DNA from: Escherichia phage vB_EcoP-101117UKE2
Sequence record: MZ234019.1
Reading direction: 5' to 3' (one strand)
DNA: 44,526 nt
The notes below the pieces were generated by a model that worked only from the letters and a program-made list of their open reading frames with translations, did no database searches and had not been told where the DNA came from. A program made the translations under genes and the position numbers. This document shows positions 3,689-28,514 of this stretch, piece by piece. Position 1 is the first letter of the stretch, and every line of letters starts with the position of its first letter.

Positions 3689-3704
3689 GTCTCACATGTG
3701 AGAC
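3689..3704. repeat. 16-bp perfect palindrome GTCTCACATGTGAGAC (copy 1)
   Basis: Exact self-complementary 16-mer immediately upstream of phage promoter. Confidence 0.9.
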
Positions 3705-3706
3705 TT

Positions 3707-3729
3707 ATTTACCGGACACTATAGGAGAG
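3707..3729 (+). promoter_or_regulatory. phage RNAP promoter ATTTACCGGACACTATAGGAGAG
   Basis: Match to SP6-type promoter core GACACTATAG; part of the genome-wide consensus here. Confidence 0.8.
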
Positions 3730-3871
3730 CCGTCGGAGACGGGAAAGAGAAGGGAAGATAAAGGATATAAAGGAAGTAATAGGTATTAAAGGTTATATAG
3801 GTTTACCTAGGAATACCTATTACCTTCTTCCTTCCTCTTATTACCACTTAGAGGAAGGGCAGATCTAGGTT
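3730..3871. other. AT-rich non-coding element between tandem phage promoters; candidate primary replication origin or structured leader
   Basis: No ATG in about 140 bp; long imperfect inverted repeat (AGGAAGTAATAGGTAT ... ATACCTATTACCTTCTTCCT); position right after RNAP gene. Confidence 0.4.
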
Positions 3872-3887
3872 GTCTCACATGTGAGAC
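3872..3887. repeat. 16-bp perfect palindrome GTCTCACATGTGAGAC (copy 2)
   Basis: Exact copy, 5 nt upstream of next promoter. Confidence 0.9.
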
Positions 3888-3892
3888 TTCGT

Positions 3893-3915
3893 ATTTACCG
3901 GACAGTATAGATAAG
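3893..3915 (+). promoter_or_regulatory. phage RNAP promoter variant ATTTACCGGACAGTATAGATAAG
   Basis: Consensus with C to G change in the CACTATA core (CAGTATA). Confidence 0.6.
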
Positions 3916-3940
3916 ACTAACTTACTTTGGAGATTTAACT

Positions 3941-4069
3941 ATGCGTAACCTAGAAAAGATTACCCGTAAAACTAAGCGTTTCGACATGGAAGAAGGGCAG
4001 ACTAAAGGCAAGAAGCTGAATAAACCTGTCCGTGACCGTGCATCTAAACGCGCTGCGTGGGAGTTCTAA
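3941..4069 (+). CDS. small basic hypothetical protein (42 aa)
   Basis: ATG with TGGAG RBS; MRNLEKITRKTKRFDMEEGQTKGKKLNKPVRDRASKRAAWEF; below ORF-track size cutoff. Confidence 0.35.
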   Translation: MRNLEKITRKTKRFDMEEGQTKGKKLNKPVRDRASKRAAWEF

Positions 4070-4072
4070 GTT

Positions 4073-6061
4073 ATGGCTATTATTCAGAATGTACCGTGTC
4101 CTGCCTGTCAAAAGAATGGACATGATATTACTGGCAACCATCTTATGATATTTGAGGATGGCGCTGGTTACTGTAATCGTGGTCACTTCCATGATAACGG
4201 TAAGCCTTACTATCATAAGCCAGAGGGCGGCATCGAGATAACCGAATTGCCCATTACTGGCAATATCAAATACACACCTTCTCAATTCAAAGAAATGGAG
4301 AAGGAAGGGAAGATAAGCGACCCTAAGCTACGCGCCATCGCACTAGGTGGTATGCGTATGAAAGACCGTTGGGAGGTCATGAATGAGCAAGAAAGGGCAG
4401 AGCAAGAAGCAGAGTGGAAACTTGATGTTGAATGGTTCCTCACGCTTAAGCGTAAGAATCTTGTTTCCCGACACATTCGCGGCGACATTTGCGCATTGTA
4501 TGATGTACGTGTCGGACATGATGAAGAGGGTAGAGTCTCACGGCATTACTATCCACGCTTCGAGAAAGGTGAACTAGTAGGCGCTAAGTGTCGCACATTA
4601 CCTAAAGACTTTAAGTTTGGTCATTTAGGTAAACTATTTGGTATGCAAGATCTTTTCGGTATGAATACTTTGTCTCACGTGTTAGACAAGGGAAGACGAA
4701 AGGATTGCTTGCTTATTGTGGGTGGGGAACTGGATGCACTAGCAGCGCAGCAGATGCTCCTTGATTCTGCCAAGGGTACTAAGTGGGAAGGGCAGCCTTA
4801 CCATGTATGGTCTGTCAATAAGGGTGAATCTTGCCTTGAAGAAATTGTGCAGAACCGTGAGCACATCGCCCAATTCAAGAAGATTATTTGGGGCTTTGAT
4901 GGGGATGAGGTAGGACAGAAGCAGAACCAACAAGCGGCTCGCCTGTTTCCTGGCAAATCCTACATCCTTGAATACCCTTCTGGTTGCAAAGATGCCAACA
5001 AGGCATTGATGGCTGGTAAAGCCAAAGAATTTGTGGATGCTTGGTTTAATGCAAAGCCATCTGATGAAGTCTTTGGTAGCCAGATTAAATCTATCGCATC
5101 TCAAAGGGATAAGCTCAAGGCTGCACGTCCAGAACAAGGGCTGTCATGGCCTTGGCCTAAGCTAAACAAGGTAACGCTGGGTATCCGTAAGAATCAGCTT
5201 ATCATTGTAGGTGCAGGCTCTGGTGTGGGTAAGACTGAGTTCCTCCGTGAAGTAGTTAAGCATCTCATTGAAGAACACGGTGAATCTGTAGGCATCATTT
5301 CTACAGAAGACCCGATGGTTAAGGTGTCCCGTGCTTTTATCGGTAAGTGGATTGATAAGCGTATTGAGCTACCGCCAACCAATGACCCGAAAGAAGATGG
5401 ATACCGTGAGGTGTTCGACTATACCGAGGAAGAGGCTAACGCTGCCATTGACTATGTAGCTGATACAGGGAAGCTGTTTGTGGCTGACCTAGAGGGTGAC
5501 TATTCAATGGAGAAGGTAGAGCAGACCTGCCTTGAGTTTGAGGCTATGGGTATTTCTAATATCATCATTGATAACTTAACGGGGATTAAATTAGATGAGC
5601 GTGCTTTTGGTGGGAAGGTTGGTGCACTTGATGAATGCGTCAAGCGGATTGGCACTATCAAGGACAGACATGCAGTTACTATCTTCCTTGTCTCGCACCT
5701 TACTCGCCCTGCGGGAAACCGAGTCCAACACGAAGAAGGTGGCGAGGTTATCCTTTCTGACTTCCGAGGCTCAGGGGCTATCGGATTCTGGGCATCTTAC
5801 GCCTTGGGGATTGAGCGTAACACAAGAGCTGAAACGCTTGACGAAAGGACTACCACGTACATCTCATGTGTCAAAGATCGCGACCAAGGTATCTTCACCG
5901 GAACCAAGATTATGCTTAAGGGTGACATTCAAACCGGACGTTTGAGAGAACCACAGGCTAGAACAAGGTCATTTGATACAGGCGAAGCAAGGCAACAAGA
6001 AGTACCGGATTTACCGGACACTATAGAAGAGACAACCTTTGATGATGAACAGGAGTTTTGA
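4073..6061 (+). CDS. DNA primase/helicase (T7 gp4-like, 662 aa)
   Basis: N-terminal Cys4 zinc ribbon (CPACQ...CNRGHFH), helicase Walker A GAGSGVGKT, acidic C-terminus ending DDEQEF. Confidence 0.95.
   Translation: MAIIQNVPCPACQKNGHDITGNHLMIFEDGAGYCNRGHFHDNGKPYYHKPEGGIEITELPITGNIKYTPSQFKEMEKEGKISDPKLRAIALGGMRMKDRWEVMNEQERAEQEAEWKLDVEWFLTLKRKNLVSRHIRGDICALYDVRVGHDEEGRVSRHYYPRFEKGELVGAKCRTLPKDFKFGHLGKLFGMQDLFGMNTLSHVLDKGRRKDCLLIVGGELDALAAQQMLLDSAKGTKWEGQPYHVWSVNKGESCLEEIVQNREHIAQFKKIIWGFDGDEVGQKQNQQAARLFPGKSYILEYPSGCKDANKALMAGKAKEFVDAWFNAKPSDEVFGSQIKSIASQRDKLKAARPEQGLSWPWPKLNKVTLGIRKNQLIIVGAGSGVGKTEFLREVVKHLIEEHGESVGIISTEDPMVKVSRAFIGKWIDKRIELPPTNDPKEDGYREVFDYTEEEANAAIDYVADTGKLFVADLEGDYSMEKVEQTCLEFEAMGISNIIIDNLTGIKLDERAFGGKVGALDECVKRIGTIKDRHAVTIFLVSHLTRPAGNRVQHEEGGEVILSDFRGSGAIGFWASYALGIERNTRAETLDERTTTYISCVKDRDQGIFTGTKIMLKGDIQTGRLREPQARTRSFDTGEARQQEVPDLPDTIEETTFDDEQEF
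6009..6031 (+). promoter_or_regulatory. phage RNAP promoter ATTTACCGGACACTATAGAAGAG embedded in 3' end of primase gene
   Basis: Full consensus match inside coding sequence. Confidence 0.75.
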
Positions 6062-6222
6062 TGGAAATTATTAAACCAGTATTGAATATCGGTATTGACA
6101 TCCTATTCATGCTTGTGATCGCAGATTATGCTGCACGATATGGATTCAAGAAAGCTGTGAAACTTATCGTTGCATCTGGTTTTCTTATGTCAATGTTCTT
6201 TATTGTAACACGCCTTATCTAG
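6061..6222 (+). CDS. small hydrophobic protein (53 aa), probable membrane protein
   Basis: ATG overlaps primase stop (TGATG); MEIIKPVLNIGIDILFMLVIADYAARYGFKKAVKLIVASGFLMSMFFIVTRLI. Confidence 0.4.
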   Translation: MEIIKPVLNIGIDILFMLVIADYAARYGFKKAVKLIVASGFLMSMFFIVTRLI

Positions 6223-6239
6223 TGTATTTATCAGGGCTT

Positions 6240-6255
6240 GTCTCACATGTGAGAC
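6240..6255. repeat. 16-bp perfect palindrome GTCTCACATGTGAGAC (copy 3)
   Basis: Exact copy; flanking bases extend the potential stem. Confidence 0.9.
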
Positions 6256-6294
6256 AGGCTCTTATTAAGTACATTAAATAACTGGAGATTGATT

Positions 6295-6474
6295 ATGTAT
6301 AAATTAGTATTGAATGTAGGTGATTATGTTCGTAACATCAATGCAACCTCACGTAGATATCGTTGCCGTGGTACTGTGACTAATGTAAGTGAAAACAGCT
6401 ACTATGTAGAGTACAGTAATGGTATTAGACAGGCTTATCAAAAGGGAAAACAGCTACTATGTAGAGTACAGTAA
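6295..6474 (+). CDS. N-terminal fragment of hypothetical protein, truncated by frameshift from a 55-bp tandem duplication
   Basis: ATG 6295 with GGAGA RBS; ends ...ENSYYVEYSNGIRQAYQKG then out-of-frame stop. Confidence 0.5.
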   Translation: MYKLVLNVGDYVRNINATSRRYRCRGTVTNVSENSYYVEYSNGIRQAYQKGKQLLCRVQ

Positions 6475-6501
6475 TGGTATTAGACAGGCTTATCAAAAGG
6501 A
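6392..6501. repeat. perfect direct tandem duplication, 2 x 55 bp
   Basis: AAAACAGCTACTATGTAGAGTACAGTAATGGTATTAGACAGGCTTATCAAAAGG present twice back to back with period 55. Confidence 0.95.
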
Positions 6502-7072
6502 ATCAGCACATAACTACCTTGAGAAGATTGGAGAGGTAAGCAATCAATGTAAGTGCGTACACGATGAGATTTGCGATAAGTGTGCACGTCAGGCAGTTAA
6601 AGCCTTTACCTTTGCTCAACGTTATGGTTCTATGTATGGTGCTGGTCACAAGACCATTGTAGAAGCAGCTTGGAAGACATTACAGCTTGAGCGTTCAAAT
6701 GGACGACGCACCACACTTAAGAAAGAGCGCCGCAATGTAATCACTGGTAAGACTCAAAGTGAGATGGTTAAGCTGTGTGGCACGGCACTAGGTGTTACGC
6801 AGTTTAACACTCGTGCTTTAGGTAAATCCACAGGACAAGCTATGGTGAAGATTGGTGAGGCCATGATGCACCCAAATGTACCTGTGCGAATCATGGATGT
6901 TGACCATGCAATCACAGAACATGGTACAACACGGCGTGTAGTTAATAATCATTTTGCCGACACTATAGAAGATATTATCCGTAAGCAAGGATTGAAAGGT
7001 CTTCACATCTTAAATGGTGAAGAGTTGCTGTACCTTCCTATTGTTACCGAAGAAACCTACGTGAATATCTAA
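6419..7072 (+). CDS. hypothetical protein, C-terminal part of gene split by the 55-bp duplication (217-aa ORF as assembled)
   Basis: Re-encodes ENSYYVEYSNGIRQAYQK in the second repeat copy, then continues ESAHNYLEKIGEV...; intact gene about 242 aa if one copy is removed. Confidence 0.55.
   Translation: MVLDRLIKRENSYYVEYSNGIRQAYQKESAHNYLEKIGEVSNQCKCVHDEICDKCARQAVKAFTFAQRYGSMYGAGHKTIVEAAWKTLQLERSNGRRTTLKKERRNVITGKTQSEMVKLCGTALGVTQFNTRALGKSTGQAMVKIGEAMMHPNVPVRIMDVDHAITEHGTTRRVVNNHFADTIEDIIRKQGLKGLHILNGEELLYLPIVTEETYVNI
6951..6973 (+). promoter_or_regulatory. weak promoter-like site ATTTTGCCGACACTATAGAAGAT inside coding sequence
   Basis: Core CACTATAG with three upstream mismatches to consensus. 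Confidence 0.25.
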
Positions 7073-7082
7073 GGAGTTAATC

Positions 7083-7301
7083 ATGACTAAAGTATTGATT
7101 TATATGAGAGGTGCTAATAAATGCTATGCAGTTGTAGCACCTGATGGTGTCAAGCCTTACGGTACTTCAAAAGGATTAGCATTAATAGGTGCTAGTCGCA
7201 GTGCAAGTTTCCAAATGGAACTTTTTGGTCATTGGACTGAAAAAGAATTCCGTGAAGAGTTTAATGTAATTGGCAGCTTTATGGTGAAACATGCAAAATA
7301 A
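7083..7301 (+). CDS. hypothetical protein (72 aa)
   Basis: ATG with AAGGAG RBS. Confidence 0.6.
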   Translation: MTKVLIYMRGANKCYAVVAPDGVKPYGTSKGLALIGASRSASFQMELFGHWTEKEFREEFNVIGSFMVKHAK

Positions 7302-7488
7302 ACATAGCCTTAAGATGTTTGATGGTCACGAAGACCTGCAAGCACAAATTACCAACCAAGCCTTCCTGTTTGCACAGTTAACTATGGCTGAAGCAAAGAA
7401 GAACAGCCTTACTCGTGAGCAGATTATCAAGGAAGGTAGCCGTGGTGCTACTCGTCGTACCAAGAACCACAGAAGTGGTGCTCGCTAG
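7291..7488 (+). CDS. hypothetical protein (65 aa)
   Basis: ORF overlapping upstream stop; weak RBS. Confidence 0.45.
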   Translation: MQNKHSLKMFDGHEDLQAQITNQAFLFAQLTMAEAKKNSLTREQIIKEGSRGATRRTKNHRSGAR

Positions 7489-7505
7489 TCGATAAGTCAA
7501 GGGTT

Positions 7506-7521
7506 GTCTCACGTGTGAGAC
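7506..7521. repeat. 16-bp palindrome variant GTCTCACGTGTGAGAC (copy 4)
   Basis: Perfect palindrome with central CACGTG instead of CACATG. Confidence 0.9.
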
Positions 7522-7552
7522 AGCCTTTCATCATATTGATTGGAGGTGCATT

Positions 7553-7660
7553 ATGCCACGTGATTATGATTCTGATTGGGACTACTATGACTCAATGAAT
7601 CCAAAACCCGAACGTTCAGATGATTACTACGAAACAGAGGCAATGTATGAAAACTATTGA
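7553..7660 (+). CDS. small acidic hypothetical protein (35 aa)
   Basis: ATG with TGGAGG RBS; MPRDYDSDWDYYDSMNPKPERSDDYYETEAMYENY; overlaps DNA polymerase start. Confidence 0.3.
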   Translation: MPRDYDSDWDYYDSMNPKPERSDDYYETEAMYENY

Positions 7661-10193: not shown

Positions 10194-10376
10194 TGGATAG
10201 ATTAGATATTGTTTGCTTGTTCTTTACCTTCTTTCTTGTCTTTCTTATGCTTGCTTGTTATGGAAGTATTCAGGTAAATATACCTGATGAAGAGGAAGGG
10301 TACGACTGAGTTATACTCAAGGTCACTTACGAGTGGCCTTTATGAATAACTTACTCCTACTTATTTTGTCTAACAT

Positions 10377-10399
10377 GATTTACTGGACACTATAGAAGG
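10377..10399 (+). promoter_or_regulatory. phage RNAP promoter ATTTACTGGACACTATAGAAGGA
   Basis: Consensus match. Confidence 0.8.
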
Positions 10400-10464
10400 A
10401 AAGCCTAGGTAATCTAGGTTTATAAGGTAGTATAGGTAATTAAGTAAATATAGGAGATATAAAT

Positions 10465-10842
10465 ATGTCTATGGTAACTACTCTGGTATTCGTAGCTCAA
10501 TACTTTCGTGGCCTGGCTAATAAGTTTAAACAGAAAGCAATCTTTGCAATTCAAGAACGTATTAATAAAATTGAAGAAGAACAAGTAGATGTAGAGGAAC
10601 ATCGTAGTTCTCAGATGATTGACCTGCATAATCGTCTGTACAAAGATCGTGATGAGATGCGTCACCGTCATGCGAAGGAAGTTGAAGACATGCTTAACCG
10701 CCATGCGGAAGAACAAGCTAAGTTGGAAACCACTTTCCATGAGGATAAACGTAGCATCGCTCTAGCACATCAAGCTGCATCGGATAGCCTGAAGAAAGAG
10801 ATTGTTATGCTGGAGATTGAGTTAGACAATCTTACCAAATAA
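10465..10842 (+). CDS. hypothetical coiled-coil protein (125 aa)
   Basis: ATG with AGGAG RBS; charged heptad-like sequence. Confidence 0.65.
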   Translation: MSMVTTLVFVAQYFRGLANKFKQKAIFAIQERINKIEEEQVDVEEHRSSQMIDLHNRLYKDRDEMRHRHAKEVEDMLNRHAEEQAKLETTFHEDKRSIALAHQAASDSLKKEIVMLEIELDNLTK

Positions 10843-10863
10843 TTACTGGACACTATAGAACAA
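10841..10863 (+). promoter_or_regulatory. phage RNAP promoter variant AATTACTGGACACTATAGAACAA
   Basis: Core match, overlaps stop of upstream gene. Confidence 0.65.
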
Positions 10864-11004
10864 TAGGTCGGCTTAGTTCGGCCTATGATTGTAAAGTGTT
10901 GAACCTTATTGTGCATCTTGCACAACCCGATACCGTATCGGGCTTTCTAGTGAGTACATGCTTGTGCTCAGTACAAAGCTAACTGACAATAGGAGACTAA
11001 ATAA

Positions 11005-11811
11005 ATGGCACGTGGTGATTTTGATTTTGGTGCTCAAGTTACTAAAGCTGAAGGTAAAGTATTTAAGAACCCAGAAGTAGGTGATCATGAAGCAGTTATC
11101 TCTGGCATCATTCATGTTGGTTCCTTCCAAGACATCTTTAAGAAAGGTAATACCACTGAAGTTAAGAAGCCAGCAAACTTTGTTCTGGTTAAGATTATCC
11201 TGATGGGTGACGATGACAAGAACGAAGATGATTCTCGCATGGAACAATGGATGGCTGTGCCTCTGAAGTCTGGTGATAAGGCAACACTGACTAAGTTCCT
11301 GAATGCAGTTGACCCTAAAGAATTGCTTGGTGGCTTCGATGACTTCATTGGTGAATGCCTGACTGCAACCATGGTTGGCTCTGGTGATAAGAATGACGAT
11401 GGCTCATTCAAGTATGTTAACTGGAAGGGCTTTGGTGGTATGCCTGACAAGCTGAAGAAACTTGTAATTGCTCAGGTTGAAGAAGAAGGTCTGTCTATGA
11501 CAGGTCACATTACCTTTGACAAGCTGACCAAAGAAATCCTTGATGACATTCCTGCTAACTTGGTACGCCAATACTTCCTGAATGAAACCCCTCGTGGTAA
11601 GAACCTGTCTGTTGCTGGTTCTCACGTAGAAGAAATCATTAAAGCTGCTCGTGAAGAAGACCCTGAGTGGAAGAAGGCTAAGAAGAAAGATGACGAGGAT
11701 GCTACTCCAGCTAATCGTAAGTCTCTGGACACTGGCGAGTCTGTTCCACAGGAAGTGCCGGAGGCAGAGGACACTCCTGCACCGGAAATGGATGAAGACG
11801 CGGAATACTAA
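11005..11811 (+). CDS. putative ssDNA-binding protein (268 aa) with acidic C-terminal tail
   Basis: AGGAG RBS; highly biased codon usage; C-terminus ...PEMDEDAEY as in phage SSB tails; function inferred only. Confidence 0.7.
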   Translation: MARGDFDFGAQVTKAEGKVFKNPEVGDHEAVISGIIHVGSFQDIFKKGNTTEVKKPANFVLVKIILMGDDDKNEDDSRMEQWMAVPLKSGDKATLTKFLNAVDPKELLGGFDDFIGECLTATMVGSGDKNDDGSFKYVNWKGFGGMPDKLKKLVIAQVEEEGLSMTGHITFDKLTKEILDDIPANLVRQYFLNETPRGKNLSVAGSHVEEIIKAAREEDPEWKKAKKKDDEDATPANRKSLDTGESVPQEVPEAEDTPAPEMDEDAEY

Positions 11812-11820
11812 GGAGGGATG

Positions 11821-12040: not shown

Positions 12041-12056
12041 GTCTCACGTGTGAGAC
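12041..12056. repeat. 16-bp palindrome variant GTCTCACGTGTGAGAC (copy 5)
   Basis: Immediately after upstream stop codon and 16 nt before a promoter. Confidence 0.9.
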
Positions 12057-12071
12057 AAATAGGTGTCCGGT

Positions 12072-12094
12072 ATTTACTGGACACTATAGAAGAG
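12072..12094 (+). promoter_or_regulatory. phage RNAP promoter ATTTACTGGACACTATAGAAGAG
   Basis: Consensus match. Confidence 0.8.
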
Positions 12095-12143: not shown

Positions 12144-12512
12144 ATGTTCAAGATTGAAACTATCGTAAACCGTGTTGTTAAAGGTGCTGCTCTGGTGTCC
12201 GTTGAATCTTTCATTATCGTCGATGAAGCTGATCAACTGGTAGCTGGCACTAAGGCTTACGATACCCGTGAAGAAGCTCAGGCTAAGATTGACAGCATGG
12301 GTAACTTTGCTGCTGGTCTGGAGTTCGCTCGTGCTTGCTTCCCTGAGCAGGCTGACAAAGCACAGATTGGTAAGGCTAATATCGTAGCTGAATATCTGGA
12401 TTGGGTTGCTGCTGGTAAACCAGTGAAAGAAGCTAAGGCTGAAGAAGCTGAAGCTCCTGCAGTAGAAGAAACCAAAGCAGAAGAAGCTCTGTCTGCTGAA
12501 GAGGAATTTTAA
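12144..12512 (+). CDS. hypothetical abundant protein (122 aa) with acidic C-terminal tail ending EEEF
   Basis: AAGGAG RBS; high-expression codon bias; followed by phage-type terminator. Confidence 0.7.
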   Translation: MFKIETIVNRVVKGAALVSVESFIIVDEADQLVAGTKAYDTREEAQAKIDSMGNFAAGLEFARACFPEQADKAQIGKANIVAEYLDWVAAGKPVKEAKAEEAEAPAVEETKAEEALSAEEEF

Positions 12513-12518
12513 TTGATG

Positions 12519-12552
12519 CCCTGTCTGCCTTAGTGTAGGCAGGGTCTTTTGT
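12519..12552 (+). terminator. phage-type (T-phi-like) terminator hairpin
   Basis: Stem CCCTGTCTG/TAGGCAGGG, 8-nt loop, then TCTTTTGTG; near-identical in architecture to element at 21622. Confidence 0.55.
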
Positions 12553-20333: not shown

Positions 20334-20339
20334 TTCAGT

Positions 20340-20362: not shown

Positions 20363-20412
20363 AGAAAAGTTCTCCCTAGTTATCAATTTGATTTATAAGG
20401 AGATTATAATAC

Positions 20413-21612: not shown

Positions 21613-21621
21613 TAACCTATG

Positions 21622-21657
21622 CCCTATCTACCTTGCGTAGGTAGGGTTCTTTTGTTT
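21622..21657 (+). terminator. phage-type (T-phi-like) terminator after capsid gene
   Basis: Stem CCCTATCTA/TAGGTAGGG, 7-nt loop, then TTCTTTTGTTT. Confidence 0.6.
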
Positions 21658-21667
21658 AGGAGGGTTC

Positions 21668-22408
21668 ATGCCTTTAATTCAAAATACAAGTGATGTTGGA
21701 CGTATCATGGCTGAGGCTTCCTTCAATATCATTGATAGCAAACTGGAAGCAGTTAACCTGTGTATGCGAGCTATCGGTCGTGAGGGTGTGGATTCCCTTG
21801 ACTCTGGCGACTTAGATGCTGAAGATGCTAATAAGATTATTGATATTGTCTCACAACGTTTCCAGTACAATAAAGGTGGTGGTTGGTGGTTTAACAGGGA
21901 ACCTAATTGGCTGCTTAAACCTGATACCAACGGCGAAGTGAATATGCCAAACAATTGCCTTGCGGTACTCCAGTGTTACGCCCTAGGTGAACGTAAAGTA
22001 CCTATGACTATACGAGCAGGCAAGTTGTATTCTGTTTGGAATCACACTTTCGACATGTCAAAGTATGTGAATCAGGATGGGCGTATTAGGTTGACTCTGG
22101 TAACATTACTACCTTTTGAGCATCTACCTGCAAGTGTTATGCAAGCTATTGCCTATCAAGCTGCCGTAGAGTTTATTGTGTCTAAGGGTGCTGATAAGAC
22201 TAAGTTACAAGCACACCAGCAGATCGCAGCACAGCTTATGATTGATGTTCAGTCAGAGCAGTCTTCTCAGAAGAGACTCAATATGCTTGTACATAACCCT
22301 ACTCAGCGCAACTTCGGAATCATGGCAGGTGGCTCACAGAATGTACCAGCATTCTCCTATTCCCCTTATGATACTTACCCTGTAAGGCCGTGGGAGGTTG
22401 ATCGCTGA
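21668..22408 (+). CDS. tail tubular protein A (gp11-like)
   Basis: Synteny; N-terminal pattern resembles T7 gp11. Confidence 0.85.
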   Translation: MPLIQNTSDVGRIMAEASFNIIDSKLEAVNLCMRAIGREGVDSLDSGDLDAEDANKIIDIVSQRFQYNKGGGWWFNREPNWLLKPDTNGEVNMPNNCLAVLQCYALGERKVPMTIRAGKLYSVWNHTFDMSKYVNQDGRIRLTLVTLLPFEHLPASVMQAIAYQAAVEFIVSKGADKTKLQAHQQIAAQLMIDVQSEQSSQKRLNMLVHNPTQRNFGIMAGGSQNVPAFSYSPYDTYPVRPWEVDR

Positions 22409-24813
22409 TGGAAGTGCAAGGCTCATTAGGTCGTCAGATTCAAGGTATTAGCCAACAACCAGCAGCAGTGCGGTTAGATGGGCAATGTACCGATATGGTT
22501 AATATGGTTCCAGATGTAGTCAACGGTACACAATCTCGCATGGGGAGTGTGCACATTGCAAAGCTACTGGACTCCGGCAGTGACAATATGGCAACACATC
22601 ACTATCGAAGAGGCGATGGTGATGAGGAATACTTCTTTGTTTTAAAGAAAGGTAGTTTGCCGGAAATCTTTGACAAGCAAGGCCGTAGGTGTAATGTGAC
22701 AACAAGGGATGCTCCTTTAGATTATCTAAAAGAAGTAGTAAATCCACGAGAAGATGTACAGTTTATGACTATTGCAGATGTCACATTTATGCTGAATAGG
22801 AGAAAGGTCGTAAAGACAAGGTCTGCACGGTCGCCTAAGATCGGTAACACTGCCTTAGTTTTTAGTGCCTATGGTCAGTATGGGACTACATATCGTATAA
22901 AGATTAACAACGTTACAGCGGCAGAGTACAGAACTGCAAATGGTGGAGAGGCTAGTGACATTAGTACAATCAGAACCGAAAGGATAGCAAGGGAGTTGTA
23001 TGAGAAACTGCTCGCTTGGGAAGGTGCTGCCGATTATAAATTCAGTCGTGATGAGAATGTCATAACCATTAGTACTGTGGACGGTTCTACTGATTTTACT
23101 GTATCTACTAATGATGGTGCGAAAGGGCAAGACTTAGTTGCAATTAAATATAAGGTAACGTCTACTGACCTCCTACCTTCTAGAGCACCCGCTGGTTACA
23201 AAGTTCAAGTCTGGCCTACAGGAAGTAAACCAGAGTCCAGATATTGGCTAGAAGCAGAGAAGAAAGAAGGCAGCTTGGTTACTTGGAAAGAAACCATTGC
23301 AGCAGATGTCCTTCTAGGTTTTGATAAAGCCACAATGCCTTACCTTATAGAGCGCACAGATATTATAGATGGGATAGCGCAGTTCACTATAAGGCAGGGA
23401 GATTGGGAAGACCGCAAGGTTGGTGATGACCTCACTAACCCCATGCCGTCCTTCATTGATAAAGAGAACCCACAAACTATAGGCGGCATGTTTATGGTAC
23501 AGAATAGGCTCTGTGTAACAGCAGGAGAGGCTGTCATAGCTACTAGGACTTCTGCGTTCTTTGACTTCTTTCGCTACTCAGCAGTGGCTAGCGTTGCTAC
23601 TGACCCGTTTGATGTGTTCTCAGATGCAAGTGAAGTCTATCAGCTAAAACATGCAGTTACTCTGGATGGTGCTACGGTCTTATTTGCTAACAGGTCGCAG
23701 TTTACAATCCCTGGAGATAAAGTACTGGAGAAGTCAAACATCGTATTACAACCAGCGACCACCTTCGAAGTTGACAACAGGGTTCCTCCTGCGGCAACGG
23801 GTGAGTCTGTGATGTTTGCTACTAGTGAGGGTGCTTACTCTGGTATCCGTGAGTTTTACACAGATTCATATAGCGATACGAAGAAGGCACAGGCTATTAC
23901 TAGTCATGTGAATAAGTTGATACAAGGTAACATCACTCACATGGTTGCCAGTACCAATATTAACAGGCTACTCGTGATTACAGACAAAGACCCCAATATC
24001 GTCTATTGTTATGATTGGTTGTGGCAAGGGACAGACCGTGTACAATCCGCATGGCATAAGTGGGTGTGGCCTAAAAATACTCTGATACGATCTATGTTCT
24101 ACTCTTCGGAGGCTTTGTATCTTCTAGTAGAAAGAGGCAATACGGGTGTCTACTTAGAGGTGATGGATATGGGGGATGCCCTCACATACGGATTGGTTGA
24201 TAGGATAAGATTAGATAGGCAGGCAGAGCTTATCTTTACTTATGACTCTTACAACTCCCAGTGGGTATCAAATCCTTTACCTTGGATACCAACAGACCCT
24301 ACATTGCTAGATTGTGTACTGACCACAGGGTGGCCTGCTTATATTGGTGGGGCTTTTGGTTTCGAATATGATGCAGGTAGCAACACACTACGGACTACAT
24401 TTGATTTAGCTGATGAGCAATCTAACGCTATCGTAGTGGTCGGACAGTTGTATCAACAGGAGTTTGAACCTACGCAAGTGGTTATCAGGGATAATCAAGA
24501 TAGAGTCTCCTATATAGATGTACCTGTGGTTGGGTTAGTGCACCTTAATCTGGATAAATACCCTGACTTTGAAGTGCACATTAAGAATTTGAAAAGTGGA
24601 AAGGTGCGAAAAGCACTAGCCTCTAATCGCAAAGGTGGTGCACTGAATAACATCGTGGGATATGTTAAACCTGAAGAGGGTTCTTTTAAGTTCCCCCTTA
24701 GGTCGCTAAGTACCGACACGGTTTATAGGATAGTTGTCAAATCACCTCACACTTTTCAACTAAGAGATATTGAGTGGGAGGGTTCGTATAACCCAACTAA
24801 GAGGAGGGTATAA
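22408..24813 (+). CDS. tail tubular protein B (gp12-like, 801 aa)
   Basis: N-terminal GISQQP motif as in T7 gp12; size and synteny. Confidence 0.9.
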   Translation: MEVQGSLGRQIQGISQQPAAVRLDGQCTDMVNMVPDVVNGTQSRMGSVHIAKLLDSGSDNMATHHYRRGDGDEEYFFVLKKGSLPEIFDKQGRRCNVTTRDAPLDYLKEVVNPREDVQFMTIADVTFMLNRRKVVKTRSARSPKIGNTALVFSAYGQYGTTYRIKINNVTAAEYRTANGGEASDISTIRTERIARELYEKLLAWEGAADYKFSRDENVITISTVDGSTDFTVSTNDGAKGQDLVAIKYKVTSTDLLPSRAPAGYKVQVWPTGSKPESRYWLEAEKKEGSLVTWKETIAADVLLGFDKATMPYLIERTDIIDGIAQFTIRQGDWEDRKVGDDLTNPMPSFIDKENPQTIGGMFMVQNRLCVTAGEAVIATRTSAFFDFFRYSAVASVATDPFDVFSDASEVYQLKHAVTLDGATVLFANRSQFTIPGDKVLEKSNIVLQPATTFEVDNRVPPAATGESVMFATSEGAYSGIREFYTDSYSDTKKAQAITSHVNKLIQGNITHMVASTNINRLLVITDKDPNIVYCYDWLWQGTDRVQSAWHKWVWPKNTLIRSMFYSSEALYLLVERGNTGVYLEVMDMGDALTYGLVDRIRLDRQAELIFTYDSYNSQWVSNPLPWIPTDPTLLDCVLTTGWPAYIGGAFGFEYDAGSNTLRTTFDLADEQSNAIVVVGQLYQQEFEPTQVVIRDNQDRVSYIDVPVVGLVHLNLDKYPDFEVHIKNLKSGKVRKALASNRKGGALNNIVGYVKPEEGSFKFPLRSLSTDTVYRIVVKSPHTFQLRDIEWEGSYNPTKRRV

Positions 24814-25538
24814 TGGCGATAATGGCGACAGTAGGGTCAAGCCTAGCCAGCATGTTCTCCAGTAGTGCAGGTGCTGCGGCTGCTAGTAGTGCTGCTGGTA
24901 GTGCCGCCGCTGGAAGTGGTGGTGTACTTGGCTCTATCGGAAGTTTCTTAGGTGGAAGCTCTGCTGGCTTTTCTAATGCAGGTTTGTTGTCTGCTGGACT
25001 ACAAGGCTTAAACTTACTAGGCGGTCTATTCGGTGGACGAGATACCGCTAAGGCTATGCAGAAAGCACAAGAAGAAGAATGGAGACAAAGGCTAGAAGCC
25101 ACACGTGAAGCCTATTCTTCTGTGGCAGATGCAGAGCGGGCTGCTGCAAAGCAATATCATTCTGACTTCCTTAGTAATCAAATTTCACTGATGCAGCAAC
25201 GAGCGCAAGTTGCAGTAATGGCAGGCGCCACTGGAACAGGTGGTAGCTCCATCACATCCATGCTCAATGATTTGACGGCAGAAGGCGGTCGCAATCAGTC
25301 AACCATTATAGATAATTATGAGAATCAGCAAATCAACTTTGCCAACCAGTTGAAGTCTATTCAACGCAGTGGACAGATGCAGATGCGAACGTTTGACAAA
25401 CCTTCCGCTTTGGGTACTTTGGTGAAAGGAATACCAAGCATTGCATCTTCCTATGTCACCGGAAGTAAAGCAGGTATGGCACTTGGCAAGGCTATCACTG
25501 AGTCTCGTACTTATTCATCAGGAACTAGAGGAGTTTAA
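24813..25538 (+). CDS. internal virion protein (gp14-like), Gly/Ala/Ser-rich
   Basis: Synteny; low-complexity N-terminus. Confidence 0.7.
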   Translation: MAIMATVGSSLASMFSSSAGAAAASSAAGSAAAGSGGVLGSIGSFLGGSSAGFSNAGLLSAGLQGLNLLGGLFGGRDTAKAMQKAQEEEWRQRLEATREAYSSVADAERAAAKQYHSDFLSNQISLMQQRAQVAVMAGATGTGGSSITSMLNDLTAEGGRNQSTIIDNYENQQINFANQLKSIQRSGQMQMRTFDKPSALGTLVKGIPSIASSYVTGSKAGMALGKAITESRTYSSGTRGV

Positions 25539-28481
25539 ATGGCAATTGAACGTCAAGCTGTACAAGGACTAGAAAGAGTACAGTCAAGGGGCGCGCCAAC
25601 ACCTATGTCTTTCACACCACGACAAGTGAGTATCTCAGGGGGCGCGGATGCCTCCGGTAGTAGATTTTTGGAAGACTTAGTAAACGCTGCAAGTAGTGTG
25701 GCTGATGTCACTACTGCTATCCTTAATCAGCAAGTAGAAGACGATAAGGTTCGCCAGATGGATAGGGCTTTGTCTGGCATGATGCCTTCTGAGGATGCTA
25801 CGGTAGGTGGTGCTCGTGCGCATATGCTGGTTAGTTTACAAAATGATGTAATCGCACAGACAACTGCGCTACAAGTAGAAGCACAGCGATTTCAAGGTAG
25901 TGACGAGGATTGGGAAAACTATGTAGTCCAATCTCGTAATGAGGTACAAAATAGGTTATGGCAAAGTTATCCAGAGCTTCGTGGTGACAAAGATTCTATG
26001 AGACTTGTCACTAACGCGTTCATGGAGCAGCAACCTAGAATTACTGCAACTAGAGCAGAGGCTAAACTTCGTCAAGAAGAAGAAGCACGAATGCAATCTA
26101 TGCAGTCTCGTATTATCATGGCTACACGGGACGTAGCGCCAGATGCCACTGGTGCAGCACTCATCCAGTTACAAAAAGAAGCACTGGCGATGGGTCTTAG
26201 TAAACCTGAGTTTGATCAGATGGTTGCTAAGATTGCATCTGACAGAGCGGCAGTAGGAGACGATAGTCTTATTCAGGGAACCAAAGCACTGGTGGATGAT
26301 AAGGGTGTCTCTTTGTATGACCGTGTTGGTGCTTTGCAAACTGGAGAGATTCAAGCTAACAGAGCTTGGGCTGCGCAGAATCAGGTTGCCCTCTTTGAGA
26401 AGAAGGATGCAGCTATAAAGGCATTCGATGCAGGGCAACTTACTCGTGAAGAGTTACTTCAGGTGATGCAGAATCACAATGAATTGACTGGTGGTACTGC
26501 TTGGTCTGATAGCGAGATCAAGGCTATCTTCGATAGGCAAGCTAAGGCTAATGCAGAGAAAGCAAAGCTCGAAGATCTTATTGCACGAGGTGAATCTGGG
26601 TCGCCTTTAGGTTTACAGGATATTAGTAAGGATGACAGAAAATCATATGCTGAAGCCTTAGTTAGTACCTACACTAAGTTGGCAGAAGATGAAATTGCCC
26701 GTACTGGTGCAACTGGAGAACAGGCTGAAGCTATTCGCGGTAGGTATGAGCAGATGCGTTATCTTAAGTTAGGGCAGCAACTTATTGAAGACCCAATCAT
26801 TAAGGAAAGATATTCGTCGCTTATGCAATTATCCTCTGCCAACCTTAAAGATATGAATGTTGAGCCTGAAGCATTACAGACCATCATGCGAGCGCGGGAC
26901 TCTATTCCAGAGGATGCACGTCGTGCTGTCATGGGAGACAAGGAGTATGCCTTTGTAGAGAACTACGACCTAGCAACTCGCATGGGGTATAACGCAGGTC
27001 AAGCTATTGAGTTTGCACAGAATGCCTCTCGTGGAGAGAAACTACAAGGTTCTGTACTTAAAGAACTGAATGATGATGTAGATGGAGTTGTAAGTGATGT
27101 GGCAGGAGGTAGTTGGCTTACTCATGGCGATAATATGAGTGAGATGGGTCGTGACATTATGATGGAGGAGGCAAGTACAATTGCGAGAGCAATGAAGGTT
27201 GCAGGTCATAATAATGACACGATTAAACGTCATCTTAAATCCTATTTGACGAGCCAGTATACACAGTTATCAGAGGGCTTCTTCACCCAAGGTGTTCTGG
27301 TGAAAGGTGATGTACGAACATTAGGTGACACTATAGGAGTAAACCAGAATGACCTTCCTATGGCGCTACGTCAATATATGGATAACAACAAGAAAGCACT
27401 TCTTGATGCATCAGGTGGCTTAGAAGAGGGTGATTTGTATTTTGATGTAGATGCGCAGCGGGGACTCTTTACCATACGTGCAGGGTCTGGTCGTGTACCT
27501 GTTACGCAGGCAATGCCTTTGTCTGAAATCAAAGGGCAGTCCTTGCTTAAGCAAAGATATGATGCAGAGGTTAAAGCCCGTGATGAGGGGCGTAAGAATT
27601 TTGAAGCACAGCAAATGAGGATGTGGGGCGCAGGTGGCTACCAAGCACAACCGCCTGCAAAGACTACAGCCAAAACTGTAGGCTCCCGTGGGATTGCTGA
27701 CTTCTTAATGTCACCTGCCTTTGCATCAGGCGAGAATCTACCAGCAAACTTTGAGTTTGGATATAAGAGGAATAATATGGACTTCTACAATTATGTAGCC
27801 AAGATGGAGAATAATGCCAATGTGGGCTTTGACCGAGTAGCTGGTGTTTATACACCATACAAAGATGCACATGGTCAATCTGTCGGGTACGGTCACTTCC
27901 TTACTACTGAAGAGAAGAAGAACGGATACATTATGATTGGTACAGAGAAAGTGCCATTCACTCCGGGACAATCTCAATTAACACCAGAACGAGCCATGCG
28001 CCTTCTACAGCAAGACTTGAAGAGTCATGTGCCAAACACTTCAGGGTGGGCTGTTCCATTCGAAGAGATGCACCCAGGTGTTCAGCGTGGCCTTATGGAC
28101 TTGTCCTATAATTTAGGCAAAGGAGGTATCCAGAATGCACCTAAAGCCTATGCTGCGTTTAAGGCTGGCAAGTTTACTGATGGATTTATTGAGATGTTAT
28201 CTACTGCATCTACTGAAGGTAAGCGTAGTACTGGGTTGTTGGTTCGTAGGGCAGAAGCATACAACCTTGCACAGAGTGGAGGTGCTATTCCTAAGATTAG
28301 TGAAGTAGAGACACGAGCCGATGGGTCTATGTATGTTAAGTTTGCAGGACAGATGTCAGAGGCTTTCGTAAATAAATCAATCTACAATCAGATTGGTAAG
28401 GATGGATGGCTGCAAGTGTACCCTCCAAAACAAGGTGTACTTGCACCTAACACCAAGATTGGTAGAATCAAACTAAGCTAG
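25539..28481 (+). CDS. internal virion protein with C-terminal GH24 lysozyme-like domain (980 aa)
   Basis: C-terminal VYTPYKDAHGQSVGYGH...LTPERAMRLLQQDL...YNLGKGG matches T4/P22 lysozyme signature. Confidence 0.85.
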   Translation: MAIERQAVQGLERVQSRGAPTPMSFTPRQVSISGGADASGSRFLEDLVNAASSVADVTTAILNQQVEDDKVRQMDRALSGMMPSEDATVGGARAHMLVSLQNDVIAQTTALQVEAQRFQGSDEDWENYVVQSRNEVQNRLWQSYPELRGDKDSMRLVTNAFMEQQPRITATRAEAKLRQEEEARMQSMQSRIIMATRDVAPDATGAALIQLQKEALAMGLSKPEFDQMVAKIASDRAAVGDDSLIQGTKALVDDKGVSLYDRVGALQTGEIQANRAWAAQNQVALFEKKDAAIKAFDAGQLTREELLQVMQNHNELTGGTAWSDSEIKAIFDRQAKANAEKAKLEDLIARGESGSPLGLQDISKDDRKSYAEALVSTYTKLAEDEIARTGATGEQAEAIRGRYEQMRYLKLGQQLIEDPIIKERYSSLMQLSSANLKDMNVEPEALQTIMRARDSIPEDARRAVMGDKEYAFVENYDLATRMGYNAGQAIEFAQNASRGEKLQGSVLKELNDDVDGVVSDVAGGSWLTHGDNMSEMGRDIMMEEASTIARAMKVAGHNNDTIKRHLKSYLTSQYTQLSEGFFTQGVLVKGDVRTLGDTIGVNQNDLPMALRQYMDNNKKALLDASGGLEEGDLYFDVDAQRGLFTIRAGSGRVPVTQAMPLSEIKGQSLLKQRYDAEVKARDEGRKNFEAQQMRMWGAGGYQAQPPAKTTAKTVGSRGIADFLMSPAFASGENLPANFEFGYKRNNMDFYNYVAKMENNANVGFDRVAGVYTPYKDAHGQSVGYGHFLTTEEKKNGYIMIGTEKVPFTPGQSQLTPERAMRLLQQDLKSHVPNTSGWAVPFEEMHPGVQRGLMDLSYNLGKGGIQNAPKAYAAFKAGKFTDGFIEMLSTASTEGKRSTGLLVRRAEAYNLAQSGGAIPKISEVETRADGSMYVKFAGQMSEAFVNKSIYNQIGKDGWLQVYPPKQGVLAPNTKIGRIKLS
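27320..27342 (+). promoter_or_regulatory. promoter-like site CATTAGGTGACACTATAGGAGTA inside internal virion protein gene
   Basis: AGGTGACACTATAG matches classical SP6 consensus better than this genome's own consensus. Confidence 0.3.
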
Positions 28482-28498
28482 TGGTATACTCAAGGTTT

Positions 28499-28514
28499 GT
28501 CTCACATGTGAGAC
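28499..28514. repeat. 16-bp perfect palindrome GTCTCACATGTGAGAC (copy 6)
   Basis: Exact copy in the junction between internal virion protein genes. Confidence 0.9.

Follow-up and report, generated by a model that had tools for sequence, protein, structure and literature searches.

Sites of the parS type are 16-bp protein-binding sequences that occur in several copies per replicon, some of them in genes, and the cyanobacterial HIP1, enterobacterial REP/BIME and T4-type PeSL elements are short, scattered palindromic repeats or promoter-stem-loop cassettes. At the level of RNA, the phage T7 sites R0.3, R0.5, R1.1, R4.7 and R18.5 lie between genes in polycistronic mRNA. An RNase III substrate spans about two helical turns, and an internal loop leads to cleavage of a single strand and leaves a protective 3' hairpin (PMC1540722). 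The enzyme needs more helix than a bare hairpin provides, and coaxially stacked short helices can also serve it (PMC1540722).

The stretch of DNA analysed here (the window) is the 44,526-nt sequence of Escherichia phage vB_EcoP-101117UKE2 (MZ234019.1), a K1E/SP6-like coliphage genome (Vectrevirus). Exact and degenerate searches of the window located GTCTCACATGTGAGAC at 3689, 3872, 6240 and 28499 and GTCTCACGTGTGAGAC at 7506 and 12041, which are the same six gene junctions at which a sequence-only reading had noted a recurrent 16-mer. For the pattern GTCTCAC-RY-GTGAGAC, these six intergenic copies compare with 0.00-0.03 expected from 100 dinucleotide shuffles, and all 6/6 are intergenic in a genome whose intergenic share is 6.3% (P ~6e-8). 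The description of the element as a perfect palindrome is true of the AT-centred copies but not of the two GT-centred ones, because the reverse complement of the latter has the centre AC. The earlier count was also too low, since it missed a seventh intergenic copy at 42741 (GTCTAACACGTTAGAC), the eighth member of the family; the copy it had placed in the primase gene at 4672 (GTCTCACGTGTTAGAC) is present, but is one mismatch away from the GT-centred form only and two from the AT-centred form. A phage promoter (ATTTACYGGACACTATAG) begins 2, 5 and 15 nt past the copies at 3689, 3872 and 12041, respectively, in agreement with the 2-20 nt given before for three copies. Extension of the stem by flanking bases, which had been described as frequent, was found at 6240, 7506 and 28499 (13-14 pairs, G·U included) but not at the promoter-proximal copies 3689, 3872 and 12041.

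The 16-mer is one form of a more broadly defined family, GTC-Y-M-AC-(RY or N3)-GT-K-R-GAC, with 6-10 mostly syntenic copies in each SP6-like genome examined, from phages of seven host genera and five named phage genera. Absence from close relatives, which the sequence-only reading would have counted, together with a lack of transcript ends or processing, against a conserved function, was not observed, and the conservation reaches well past such relatives. The features of the window are collected in Table 1; Rfam covariance models run against the whole window gave 0 matches at the gathering threshold.

Table 1. Copies of the element and associated hairpins in the window (cleavage positions are predictions)
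Feature	Position	Strand	Details
Intrinsic terminator-like hairpin plus U-run	3623-3646	+	Immediately 3' of the RNA polymerase gene; equivalent annotated as terminator in relative R4596
Site b, bare 16-mer	3689-3704		Phage promoter 3707-3728 begins 2 nt downstream
Site c, bare 16-mer	3872-3887		5 nt ahead of second promoter 3893-3914
Site d, primase/helicase-gene copy GTCTCACGTGTTAGAC	4672-4687	+	Encodes S-H-V-L-D; codon comparison across genomes
Site e, putative T7-type RNase III hairpin	6220-6276	+	16-mer 6240-6255 as cap; lower stem TAGTGTATT/AGTACATTA; internal loop TATC/TATTA; upper stem AGGGCTT/AGGCTCT; predicted cut after 6265
Site f, putative T7-type RNase III hairpin	7486-7542	+	16-mer 7506-7521 as cap; lower stem TAGTCGATA/TATTGATTG; internal loop AGTC/CATCA; upper stem AAGGGTT/AGCCTTT; predicted cut after 7531
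Putative T7 R1.1-type RNase III site without 16-mer	10308-10352	+	ACTC-AAGGTCACT-TACG-AGTGGCCTT-TATGA; fold z = -3.5; predicted RNase III-dependent end at ~10343
Site g, 16-mer followed by second hairpin	12041-12094	+	16-mer 12041-12056; second hairpin 12062-12085; promoter 12072-12094
Site j, putative T7 R1.1-type RNase III hairpin	28479-28535	+	16-mer 28499-28514 as cap; lower stem TAGTGGTAT/ATGACACTG; internal loop ACTC/TATGA; upper stem AAGGTTT/ATGCCTT; predicted cut after 28524
Site a, bare family member GTCTAACACGTTAGAC	42741-42756		Non-coding left-end region near the true left genome end

Three of the copies (sites e, f and j) and the hairpin at 10308-10352, which is the diverged, same-flank hairpin reported earlier near 10327, resemble the T7 sites in being intergenic in polycistronic mRNA and in having the architecture of an RNase III substrate, that is, a hairpin of about two helical turns with a lower stem, an asymmetric internal loop and an upper stem. 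Like T7 R1.1-type sites, these framed sites have a lower stem of 7-9 bp and an upper stem starting AAGG/CCUU, and they lie near phage promoters (that at 10308-10352 is 26 nt upstream of the promoter at 10378). The conserved frame of (A)CUC, AAGG...CCUU and UAU^GA in site j matches T7 R1.1, R0.5 and R0.3 exactly, that at 10308-10352 matches the same three sites and is nearly identical to T7 R1.1, and both have the internal loop ACUC/UAUGA of the T7 sites; sites f (AGUC-AAGGG..CCUUU-CAUCA) and e (UAUC-AGGG..CUCU-UAUUA) are variants of this pattern. A single regular expression for the frame picked out the five T7 sites together with f, j and 10319 in the window, with no further match. Unlike the T7 sites, whose upper stem is ~10 bp, three of the four window sites have an upper stem of 13-14 bp with a sequence-invariant 16-nt module at the apex, this module also stands alone outside RNase III frames, and cleavage of the SP6-like sites is a prediction only. 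The distance from the proximal AAGG/CCUU box to the module differs by 1-4 bp among genomes, and therefore the module is not the distal box.

Consensus folds of the framed sites consist of two stems and a 4x5 internal loop, and the stems covary among 12-15 relatives. Site e, whose lower stem begins at the TAG with which the upstream gene ends, has five compensatory pairs in the consensus fold (15 relatives). At site f, the 24 pairs are 98.3% paired (28-46% in slid controls) with double changes at 10 pairs, and at site j the corresponding values are 98.5% for 23 pairs (35-42% in slid controls) and 8 pairs; at each of these two sites the covariation score was reached by 0/500 shuffles. Variants that break the hairpin were found in 0/40 framed copies, among which U·G occurs 8 times and C·A 0 times. 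The G·U pairs are in the plus-strand sense only, and both the G·U pairs in the flanks and the SP6 variant GUCUAAC..GUUGGAC (U·G) allow a hairpin as plus-strand RNA only. Because of this strong covariation and the G·U pairs, the framed sites are taken to act as plus-strand RNA. The assignment of sites e, f, j and the 10308-10352 hairpin as putative RNase III-like processing sites is thus well supported by their sequences, and the processing role suggested by the sequence-only reading stands for these four (frame, internal loop, two stems and covariation) and not for the bare and coding copies, which lack the frame. A search of the literature found no transcript-end data for SP6/K1E-type phages.

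We give about an even chance to the reading that the 16-mer represents, in Vectrevirus, a hairpin module common to all SP6-like (Molineuxvirinae) genomes examined and serves mainly as plus-strand RNA punctuation. This module has the stem GUCYMAC/GUKRGAC around a centre of 2 nt (RY), which in a Proteus phage is 3 nt long. In polycistronic plus-strand RNA the module would mark where transcription or translation units end. The copies at 6240, 7506 and 28499 top the upper stem of putative T7 R1.1-type RNase III sites, in structures that extend from the TAG stop of the upstream gene to just short of the next Shine-Dalgarno sequence. By analogy to T7, host RNase III would make a single cut in the 3' strand of the internal loop (UAU^GA, CAU^CA, UAU^UA), which would free the downstream mRNA and leave a protective 3' hairpin on the upstream mRNA. 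Junctions between a unit end and a promoter hold either a full RNase III-type site (10308-10352) or the bare module. At 3689, 3872 and 12041 the lone hairpin is the final element ahead of the next phage promoter, a slot that the full RNase III-type hairpin at 10308-10352 occupies ahead of the promoter at 10378. Coaxial stacking of the 12041 hairpin on its neighbour, the hairpin that contains the promoter, is conceivable.

The copies outside RNase III frames (3689, 3872, 12041, site a at the left end and those within genes) present a different picture. The two-helical-turn, split-stem architecture is absent at 3689, 3872, 42741 and 4672, which have a bare 6-7 bp hairpin only, and a 6-bp hairpin is far below the length requirement of RNase III. 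Site b, which is syntenic in all SP6-like genomes examined, forms nothing larger than a 6-bp hairpin whose loop is 4 nt long, extended structure being absent (z = 0.0). Site c occupies the position of T7 R1.1, 3' of the RNA polymerase gene and between two promoters, with a spacing to the promoter of 0-7 nt in relatives. Site a is syntenic in K1-5 (559), SP6 (493), cp4 (722), phD2B (596) and Proteus Pm5460 (562), the last of these lying 2 nt ahead of a phage promoter; in the window a TTGACA hexamer is ~35 nt downstream, and all rightward promoters may lie downstream of this copy. An extended RNA fold was looked for at site a and none was found (z ~0), and relatives often carry RNA-incompatible C·A variants here. 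Site g, where the 16-mer abuts the upstream TAA stop, has two short neighbouring hairpins in place of an RNase III-type split stem. In the second of these the promoter core pairs with a complement lying upstream, and across 13 genomes the two arms of this hairpin change together with the type of promoter (GGTGTCC/GGACAC, GGTGCAGCA/TGTTGCACT and ATGGTGGTCT/AGACCACTAT).

Variants that break the RNA hairpin occur in 10/64 naked and 8/30 coding copies, and in naked copies U·G and C·A are equally frequent (7 vs 7). RNA-incompatible C·A and C·U variants are present in the bare and coding copies, yet the sequence is still conserved. The centre is a purine-pyrimidine step throughout, symmetric on both strands, with 0 transversions in 134 unique copies. 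In Proteus Pm5460 the stem is kept and the centre is 3 nt instead of 2 at five sites, which matches expectation for a hairpin loop. In bare and coding copies one half-site varies independently of the other, and GTCCAAC, GTCTAAC and GTCTCAC are combined within one site. Copies within one genome are mostly of one variant, with differences between genomes; K1-5, CrRp3 and SP6 contain mixed variants. The TCAC variant is found in both Vectrevirus and the distant Erwinia phage S2, which have no factor gene in common.

Copies of the family occur within RNA polymerase, primase, kinase and ligase genes. At site d, synonymous positions within the motif do not change over 20 genomes (Val GTG in 20/20, Asn AAC in 13/13) while adjacent codons vary, and the Asp codon is GAC in 21/21 when Pm5460 is counted, a phage whose primase lacks the motif and encodes T-A-F-L-D there. 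The left half has changed to the Vectrevirus half-site at the cost of Asn-to-His; the right half is unable to switch, because the G required in position 12 of the motif would introduce a stop codon (TGA). This copy is under selection. The invariant positions, frozen primase codons and motif-dictated amino acids together argue for purifying selection on the 16-mer sequence rather than neutral spread. Frozen-synonymous coding copies in RNA polymerase, primase, kinase and ligase are not predicted by mRNA punctuation. In Erwinia phage S2 there are RNase III-type frames without the module, and the module is only bare or in genes. Since bare and coding copies lack the frame and S2 separates the palindrome from it, the RNase III reading holds for half of the copies. 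RNase III would neither need nor conserve a specific 7-bp apical sequence, and the 16-mer itself must presumably be read sequence-specifically by some factor, as hairpin RNA or as duplex DNA.

A less probable, though possible, reading, whose dimeric protein the sequence-only reading had also raised, is that the 16-mer is primarily a duplex-DNA palindrome, operator- or parS-like, bound by a dimeric, probably phage-encoded protein with the half-site GTCYMAC. By this account, the apex of an RNase III hairpin would be the sole spot in compact junctions at which a palindrome spares RNA structure, and the other copies would lie just ahead of promoters or within genes. As in operators and parS, the window element is a 16-bp near-perfect palindrome in ~8-10 dispersed copies grouped within one genome region, with some family copies in coding genes, conservation at the nucleotide level and independent half-site variation. 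The equal frequency of C·A and U·G, the both-strand symmetry of the centre, the selection on the primase copy, the separation of module and frame in S2 and the genome-wide switches of variant type all favour a DNA site. So does placement: bare copies adjoin promoters of both host and phage type, and copies cluster at the two-promoter region after the RNA polymerase gene, which we take to be the positional counterpart of the T7 primary replication origin. However, dyad symmetry is accompanied by a spacing of 2 nt in most genomes and by a 1-bp shift at the five Pm5460 sites, so that, unlike in operators and parS, half-site spacing differs in one lineage and three window copies are constrained as RNA. 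Spacing from copy to promoter ranges over 0-16 nt, hence phasing is not fixed; every transcribed intergenic asymmetric copy of SP6 is in the RNA-compatible orientation; and the apex of three RNase III-type sites is occupied consistently in at least five genera, which suggests functional coupling to RNA. No DNA-binding protein was recognised by Pfam and PHROG (10 uncharacterized proteins), PDB sequence (5) or one AF2 model, and for no protein did the similarity pattern track motif type; a basic 240-aa protein with a CxCx5Cx2C motif is a candidate for the binding protein.

Whichever molecule is read, we tentatively propose that the 16/17-mer could be the recognition site of a sequence-specific factor common to SP6-like phages, most plausibly a phage dimeric protein on duplex DNA, or one on hairpin RNA, in a network of ~8-10 sites that controls middle-gene expression or replication. 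If so, this dispersed network spans promoter-adjacent sites, RNase III apices and the RNA polymerase, primase, kinase and ligase genes. Such a factor would fill a gap, as the 2004 SP6/K1-5 genome analysis reportedly found this phage group to be without the T7 regulators gp0.7, gp2 and gp3.5.

It is improbable that the element is an iterated palindrome without dedicated function, homogenised by gene conversion or template switching and tolerated where harmless. Copies are alike within genomes and unlike between them; at site f, UV1199 and Vectrevirus differ at 6/16 motif positions despite ~95% identical flanks; partial conversions of the left half only occur at sites a and d; and the TCAC variant shared by S2 and Vectrevirus also fits. 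Concerted evolution, scattered palindromes, some of them coding, and frequent placement at promoter-adjacent gene junctions recall HIP1, REP/BIME and PeSL. Unlike these, the window element has far fewer copies, is syntenic across genera and has individual sites under purifying selection, as seen in the invariant GTC..AC/GT..GAC and in the primase gene, and the same sites are retained in phages of seven host genera. No sign of gene shuffling mediated by the copies was seen. Gene conversion may account for the homogenisation, not for the conservation.

The proposal, also raised by the sequence-only reading, that the hairpins terminate or pause transcription by the phage or host RNA polymerase, insulating units ahead of promoters, is very unlikely, because the conserved U-tract that immediately follows the G+C-rich hairpin of an intrinsic terminator (rho-independent or class I phage RNA polymerase type) is absent. 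Two relatives (R4596 and Pm5460) have site e annotated as a rho-independent terminator, and a lax scan rates 3689 and 3872 as weakly terminator-like. However, the T-rich tail at these two copies is merely the AT-rich upstream part of the promoter, and SP6, cp4 and others lack it at the corresponding copies; in the framed sites the stem is not directly followed by a U-tract, and termination leaves the invariant stem sequence and the coding copies unexplained. The genuine terminators of the window (3623-3646, 12518-12545, 21621-21647) differ strongly in appearance.

Equally unlikely is a perfect 16-bp duplex formed between two copies on the same transcript and cut on both strands by RNase III, a scheme in which self-complementary copies also complement each other and must stay alike within a genome: a single variant is common to all copies of a genome, GT-centred and AC-centred copies are exact complements and the helix requirement of RNase III exceeds a bare hairpin (PMC1540722), but local hairpins form first, framed copies are locked in long local stems, and K1-5, CrRp3 and SP6 function with mixed variants.

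The repeated palindrome in the window is real and is much more widespread than the sequence-only reading had indicated. All six copies that it had placed at gene junctions (6/6) fall inside the intergenic 6.3% of the genome (P about 6e-8), dinucleotide shuffles gave an expectation of no 16-mer matches, and three of the copies do lie just upstream of phage promoters (ATTTACYGGACACTATAG), which start 2, 5 and 15 nt after those at 3689, 3872 and 12041. Other parts of that description needed revision: the term perfect palindrome holds for the AT-centred copies, whereas the GT-centred copies are one base short of a perfect DNA palindrome; the primase gene copy at 4672, proposed to have one mismatch, has 2 relative to the AT-centred form; and the count was too low, as a family member at 42741 was missed.

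Features of the palindrome family and associated elements (window coordinates unless stated; letters denote syntenic sites)
Feature	Position	Sequence or structure	Location
Site a	42741	GTCTAACACGTTAGAC, extra family copy	near left end
Site b	3689	GTCTCACATGTGAGAC (AT-centred), exact match	ahead of promoter 3' of RNAP gene (one of two)
Site c	3872	GTCTCACATGTGAGAC (AT-centred), exact match	ahead of promoter 3' of RNAP gene (one of two)
Site d	4672		within primase gene
Site e	6240; element 6220-6276	GTCTCACATGTGAGAC (AT-centred), exact match; close variant of T7 frame	3' of primase/helicase gene
Site f	7506; element 7486-7542	GTCTCACGTGTGAGAC (GT-centred), exact match; close variant of T7 frame	5' of DNA polymerase gene
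Site g	12041	GTCTCACGTGTGAGAC (GT-centred), exact match	ahead of middle promoter
Site j	28499; element 28479-28535	GTCTCACATGTGAGAC (AT-centred), exact match; T7 frame, apex is the 16-mer	between two large internal virion protein genes
10327 element	10308-10352	T7 frame, ordinary apex	
Additional copies, some genomes only			within RNAP, nucleotide kinase or ligase genes
240-aa protein gene	6295-7072 (disrupted); MZ234020.1 6295-7017; Erwinia S2 locus L134 6159-6863		

Across a comparison set of 22 other related-phage sequences from GenBank and IMG/VR, the motif follows the consensus GTC-Y-M-AC-RY-GT-K-R-GAC, in which the bases GTC..AC/GT..GAC are unchanging, the pair at positions 4/13 is C-G, U·G or U-A, that at positions 5/12 is A-U or C-G, and the centre is purine-pyrimidine in every case; Proteus Pm5460 retains a GTCCAAC/GTTGGAC stem with a 3-nt centre at 5 of 6 sites. 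SP6-like genomes carry 6-10 copies each at largely syntenic sites, every multi-copy contig in IMG/VR is SP6-like with a length of about 44 kb, single IMG/VR matches elsewhere are consistent with chance, and the T7 genome contains no copies. Isolated half-sites showed no enrichment; therefore, only the palindromic arrangement is selected.

The prevailing type in Vectrevirus, GTCTCAC/GTGAGAC, is also found in Erwinia S2. SP6 and Kenya-K31 carry mostly GTCTAAC/GTTGGAC, which is not a DNA palindrome and forms a perfect RNA hairpin that includes a single U·G pair, and GTCCAAC/GTTGGAC is found in Klebsiella cp4, Lelliottia phD2B, Pectobacterium PP1 and several uncultured contigs. One variant per genome is typical and variants differ between genomes; at site f, the flanks of UV1199 and Vectrevirus are about 95% identical and the motif differs at 6 of its 16 positions. 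This uniformity within genomes could reflect either a trans-acting reader (a factor that recognizes the 16-mer) that switched specificity or gene conversion that homogenized the copies. A tolerant reader plus gene conversion is favored, because mixed-variant genomes exist (site f of K1-5 and site e of CrRp3 are of the GTCCAAC type), the TCAC type is shared by Vectrevirus and the distant Erwinia S2, and no protein tracked the variant type when similarity patterns were compared with Erwinia S2. A link to promoter or RNAP specificity was ruled out, as GTCCAAC-type motifs span at least five promoter consensus types. The otherwise SP6-type Salmonella phage Kenya-K31 also has one Vectrevirus-type copy, GTCTCACATGTGAGAC (locus L010, position 6620), right after a TAA stop and ahead of a start codon. 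It lies in an extra segment that separates the promoters from the primase gene, a hint that junction modules are exchanged in mosaic fashion.

The sequences of five T7 RNase III sites (R0.3, R0.5, R1.1, R4.7 and R18.5), at positions reportedly given by Dunn and Studier 1983, were confirmed in the T7 record and have the common frame ACUC-AAGG-[stem-loop]-CCUU-UAU^GA. A single regular expression for this frame matches these five sites plus site f, site j and the 10327 element (at 10319) in the window, with zero other matches. Consensus folds of 12-15 orthologous sequences revealed one architecture common to sites e, f and j, comprising a lower stem of 9-10 pairs, a 4x5 internal loop and an upper stem of 13-14 pairs. 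For sites j and f, pairing was 98%, versus 28-46% in controls with the partner columns slid, changes on both sides were found in 8 and 10 pairs, respectively, and the covariation score was reached by 0 of 500 shuffles. Because it contains many G·U pairs, the framed structure exists only in plus-strand RNA. Its lower stem starts exactly at the TAG that terminates the upstream gene (6220-6222, 7486-7488 and 28479-28481), and its 3' arm stops just ahead of the next Shine-Dalgarno sequence.

RNase III substrates span about two helical turns, and an internal loop restricts cleavage to a single strand, so that a protective 3' hairpin remains (PMC1540722). The framed sites in the window fit these rules, and because of this agreement in architecture sites e, f and j and the 10327 element can be assigned with high confidence as putative RNase III processing sites. 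RNase III processing, one of the roles suggested earlier for the palindrome, is thus retained for three of six copies and for the 10327 hairpin, and not for the other copies. The framed sites are new examples of a known T7 site type, so the predicted processing design is common to T7-like and SP6-like phages despite their divergence, and the four predicted sites supply testable mRNA boundaries, with predicted cuts at about 6265/6266, 7531/7532, 10343/10344 and 28524/28525. The possibility that the 16-mer is the RNase III distal box was ruled out, because its distance from the AAGG/CCUU proximal box differs by 1-4 bp among genomes.

Two further elements resemble known RNA signals. At window positions 865-893, within the 3' end of the gene immediately 5' of the RNA polymerase gene, GGTGAAGGTCATGAGGCATGGCCTTTGAT has a T7-like AAGGUC...GGCCUUUGAU frame at the position of the T7 R1 RNase III site, and may be a fifth RNase III-type site that overlaps coding sequence. 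The 3' arm of site e (6257-6268) reads GGCTCTTATTAA, similar to the boxA antitermination elements of lambda (CGCTCTTA) and rrn operons (TGCTCTTTAACAA); this likeness is probably a coincidence, since the arm is paired inside the hairpin.

On the comparative evidence, the apical 16-mer is a module in its own right, with selection acting on its sequence. Erwinia S2 has RNase III-type frames with ordinary apices at sites f and j, and all of its motif copies are either within genes or bare, the bare ones lying 3' of the RNAP terminator and 1 nt ahead of a promoter; therefore, the module can be separated from the RNase III frame. Within the primase gene, synonymous sites of the module are frozen in 20 genomes that represent at least five genera: Val is GTG in 20/20, Asn is AAC in 13/13, Ser is always TCY and Leu always TTR, and, with Pm5460 included, Asp is GAC in 21/21. 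Each of the neighboring Gly, Arg, Leu and Thr codons draws on 3-6 synonyms. The Pm5460 primase lacks the motif, with T-A-F-L-D replacing S-N-V-L-D. In Vectrevirus the left half of this copy switched to GTCTCAC, the form typical of the genus, which cost an Asn-to-His change; the right half could not switch, because a TGA stop would arise from G at position 12. A predicted extended RNA structure around this copy is significant in the window (z = -3.0), but its outer helix was not conserved in a hand comparison with SP6, so the structure was set aside. SP6 primase reportedly recognizes 5'-GCA-3' (Tseng et al. 2000); this trinucleotide is not in the motif, so a primase recognition site was ruled out.

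Sites b (3689), c (3872) and a (42741) form a bare 6-bp hairpin only, with z-scores near 0 to -2. At site g (12041), the copy is followed by a second hairpin (12062-12085) in which an upstream complement (GGTGTCCGGT) pairs with the promoter core (ACTGGACACT). This second hairpin covaries with promoter type (13 genomes, across genera; alignment A4), and therefore the promoter DNA doubles as RNA structure in read-through transcripts. Coaxially stacked short helices can serve as an RNase III substrate (PMC1540722), and it is a speculative proposal that the two site g hairpins could form one in this way. Between the two promoters 3' of the RNAP gene, window 3730-3870 is AT/purine-rich, with CCTATTACC-like repeats and a 9-bp hairpin (3830-3858). 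By position, this region corresponds to the T7 primary replication origin, which has two promoters and an AT-rich stretch.

The remaining copies and the conserved 16-mer itself point to sequence-specific recognition by a factor. Hairpin-breaking combinations were found in 0 of 40 framed copies (U·G 8, C·A 0), in 10 of 64 bare intergenic copies (U·G 7, C·A 7; Fisher p 0.0065, for related sequences) and in 8 of 30 coding copies (Fisher p 0.0006, again for related sequences). The reading that we favor, with about even confidence, is that the 16-mer would act as an RNA-level module that punctuates the ends of units. Its main rival, a palindrome bound by a protein as duplex DNA, is judged less likely. 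Pairing of copies in trans to make RNase III substrates is possible but unsupported. A terminator or pause function, also suggested earlier, is unlikely, as no U-tract is conserved and the genuine terminators of the window have a different appearance. A selfish or purely neutral repeat is contradicted by purifying selection at the site level.

An attractive candidate for the reader is a basic 240-aa protein with a CxCx5Cx2C motif (pI 9.3), whose gene is flanked by sites e and f. Among the products of the conserved middle genes it diverges fastest, with 43-48% identity to SP6 and cp4 versus about 85-90% for the primase and polymerase genes, and a perfect motif copy (L134 6493) lies within its Erwinia ortholog gene, in another reading frame; an AF2 model of the protein, with a pLDDT of 50, was too poor to be informative. 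Pfam and PHROG searches of ten uncharacterized early/middle proteins revealed no recognizable nucleic-acid-binding domain, and a PDB sequence search with five uncharacterized proteins found no relatives of known structure.

No Rfam family matched the module, searches of the literature for the exact sequences of five motif variants found nothing relevant, and those for transcriptome data or work tying RNase III to SP6-like phages found nothing usable. The separable, family-wide apical module appears new, as it is not described in the searchable literature; Dobbins 2004 (SP6) and Scholl 2004 (SP6/K1-5) fall outside that scope and may contain a prior mention. The module is found in RNA hairpin apices, beside promoters and within essential genes, where it dictates the peptide, a distribution that implies a reader and possibly an unrecognized regulatory layer. 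SP6 and K1E/K1-5-type phages are the source of SP6 RNA polymerase and find therapeutic use against capsulated bacteria, yet their post-transcriptional and regulatory signals are essentially unannotated; recoding of module-bearing genes or junctions during phage engineering could delete functional sites.

The window is a complete phage genome of the genus Vectrevirus, subfamily Molineuxvirinae, in the K1E/K1-5/SP6-like branch of the T7 supergroup. Its record is circularly permuted, with the biological left end near position 42,100, and the plus strand carries all genes. The sole differences from MZ234020.1 (Escherichia phage vB_EcoP-101118B1) are two 55-bp tandem duplications. One, at window 6391-6500, frameshifts the 240-aa gene that is intact in MZ234020.1 (6295-7017); the other, at about 30940-31050 of MZ234020.1, splits a large internal virion protein gene that is undamaged in the window (28549-32352). 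Both are probably contig-end overlap artefacts, because 55 is a common assembler k-mer size. SP6-like hairpins in deposited records are ignored, lie under dubious small ORFs or are called terminators. In the MZ234020.1 annotation, small hypothetical ORFs overlap hairpins, promoters and terminators (window 3600-3695 and 3922-4011 on the minus strand and 7553-7660 on the plus strand); one of them, a minus-strand 31-aa ORF, spans a terminator together with part of the 3689 palindrome. Such ORFs are likely over-calls.

The C-terminal tails of the 268-aa (window 11005-11811) and 122-aa (12144-12512) proteins are strongly acidic, and the last residue is aromatic (...EMDEDAEY and ...LSAEEEF, respectively). 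These resemble the DNA-polymerase-contacting C-terminal tails of T7 gp2.5 and gp4, and the 268-aa protein is probably a single-stranded DNA-binding protein.
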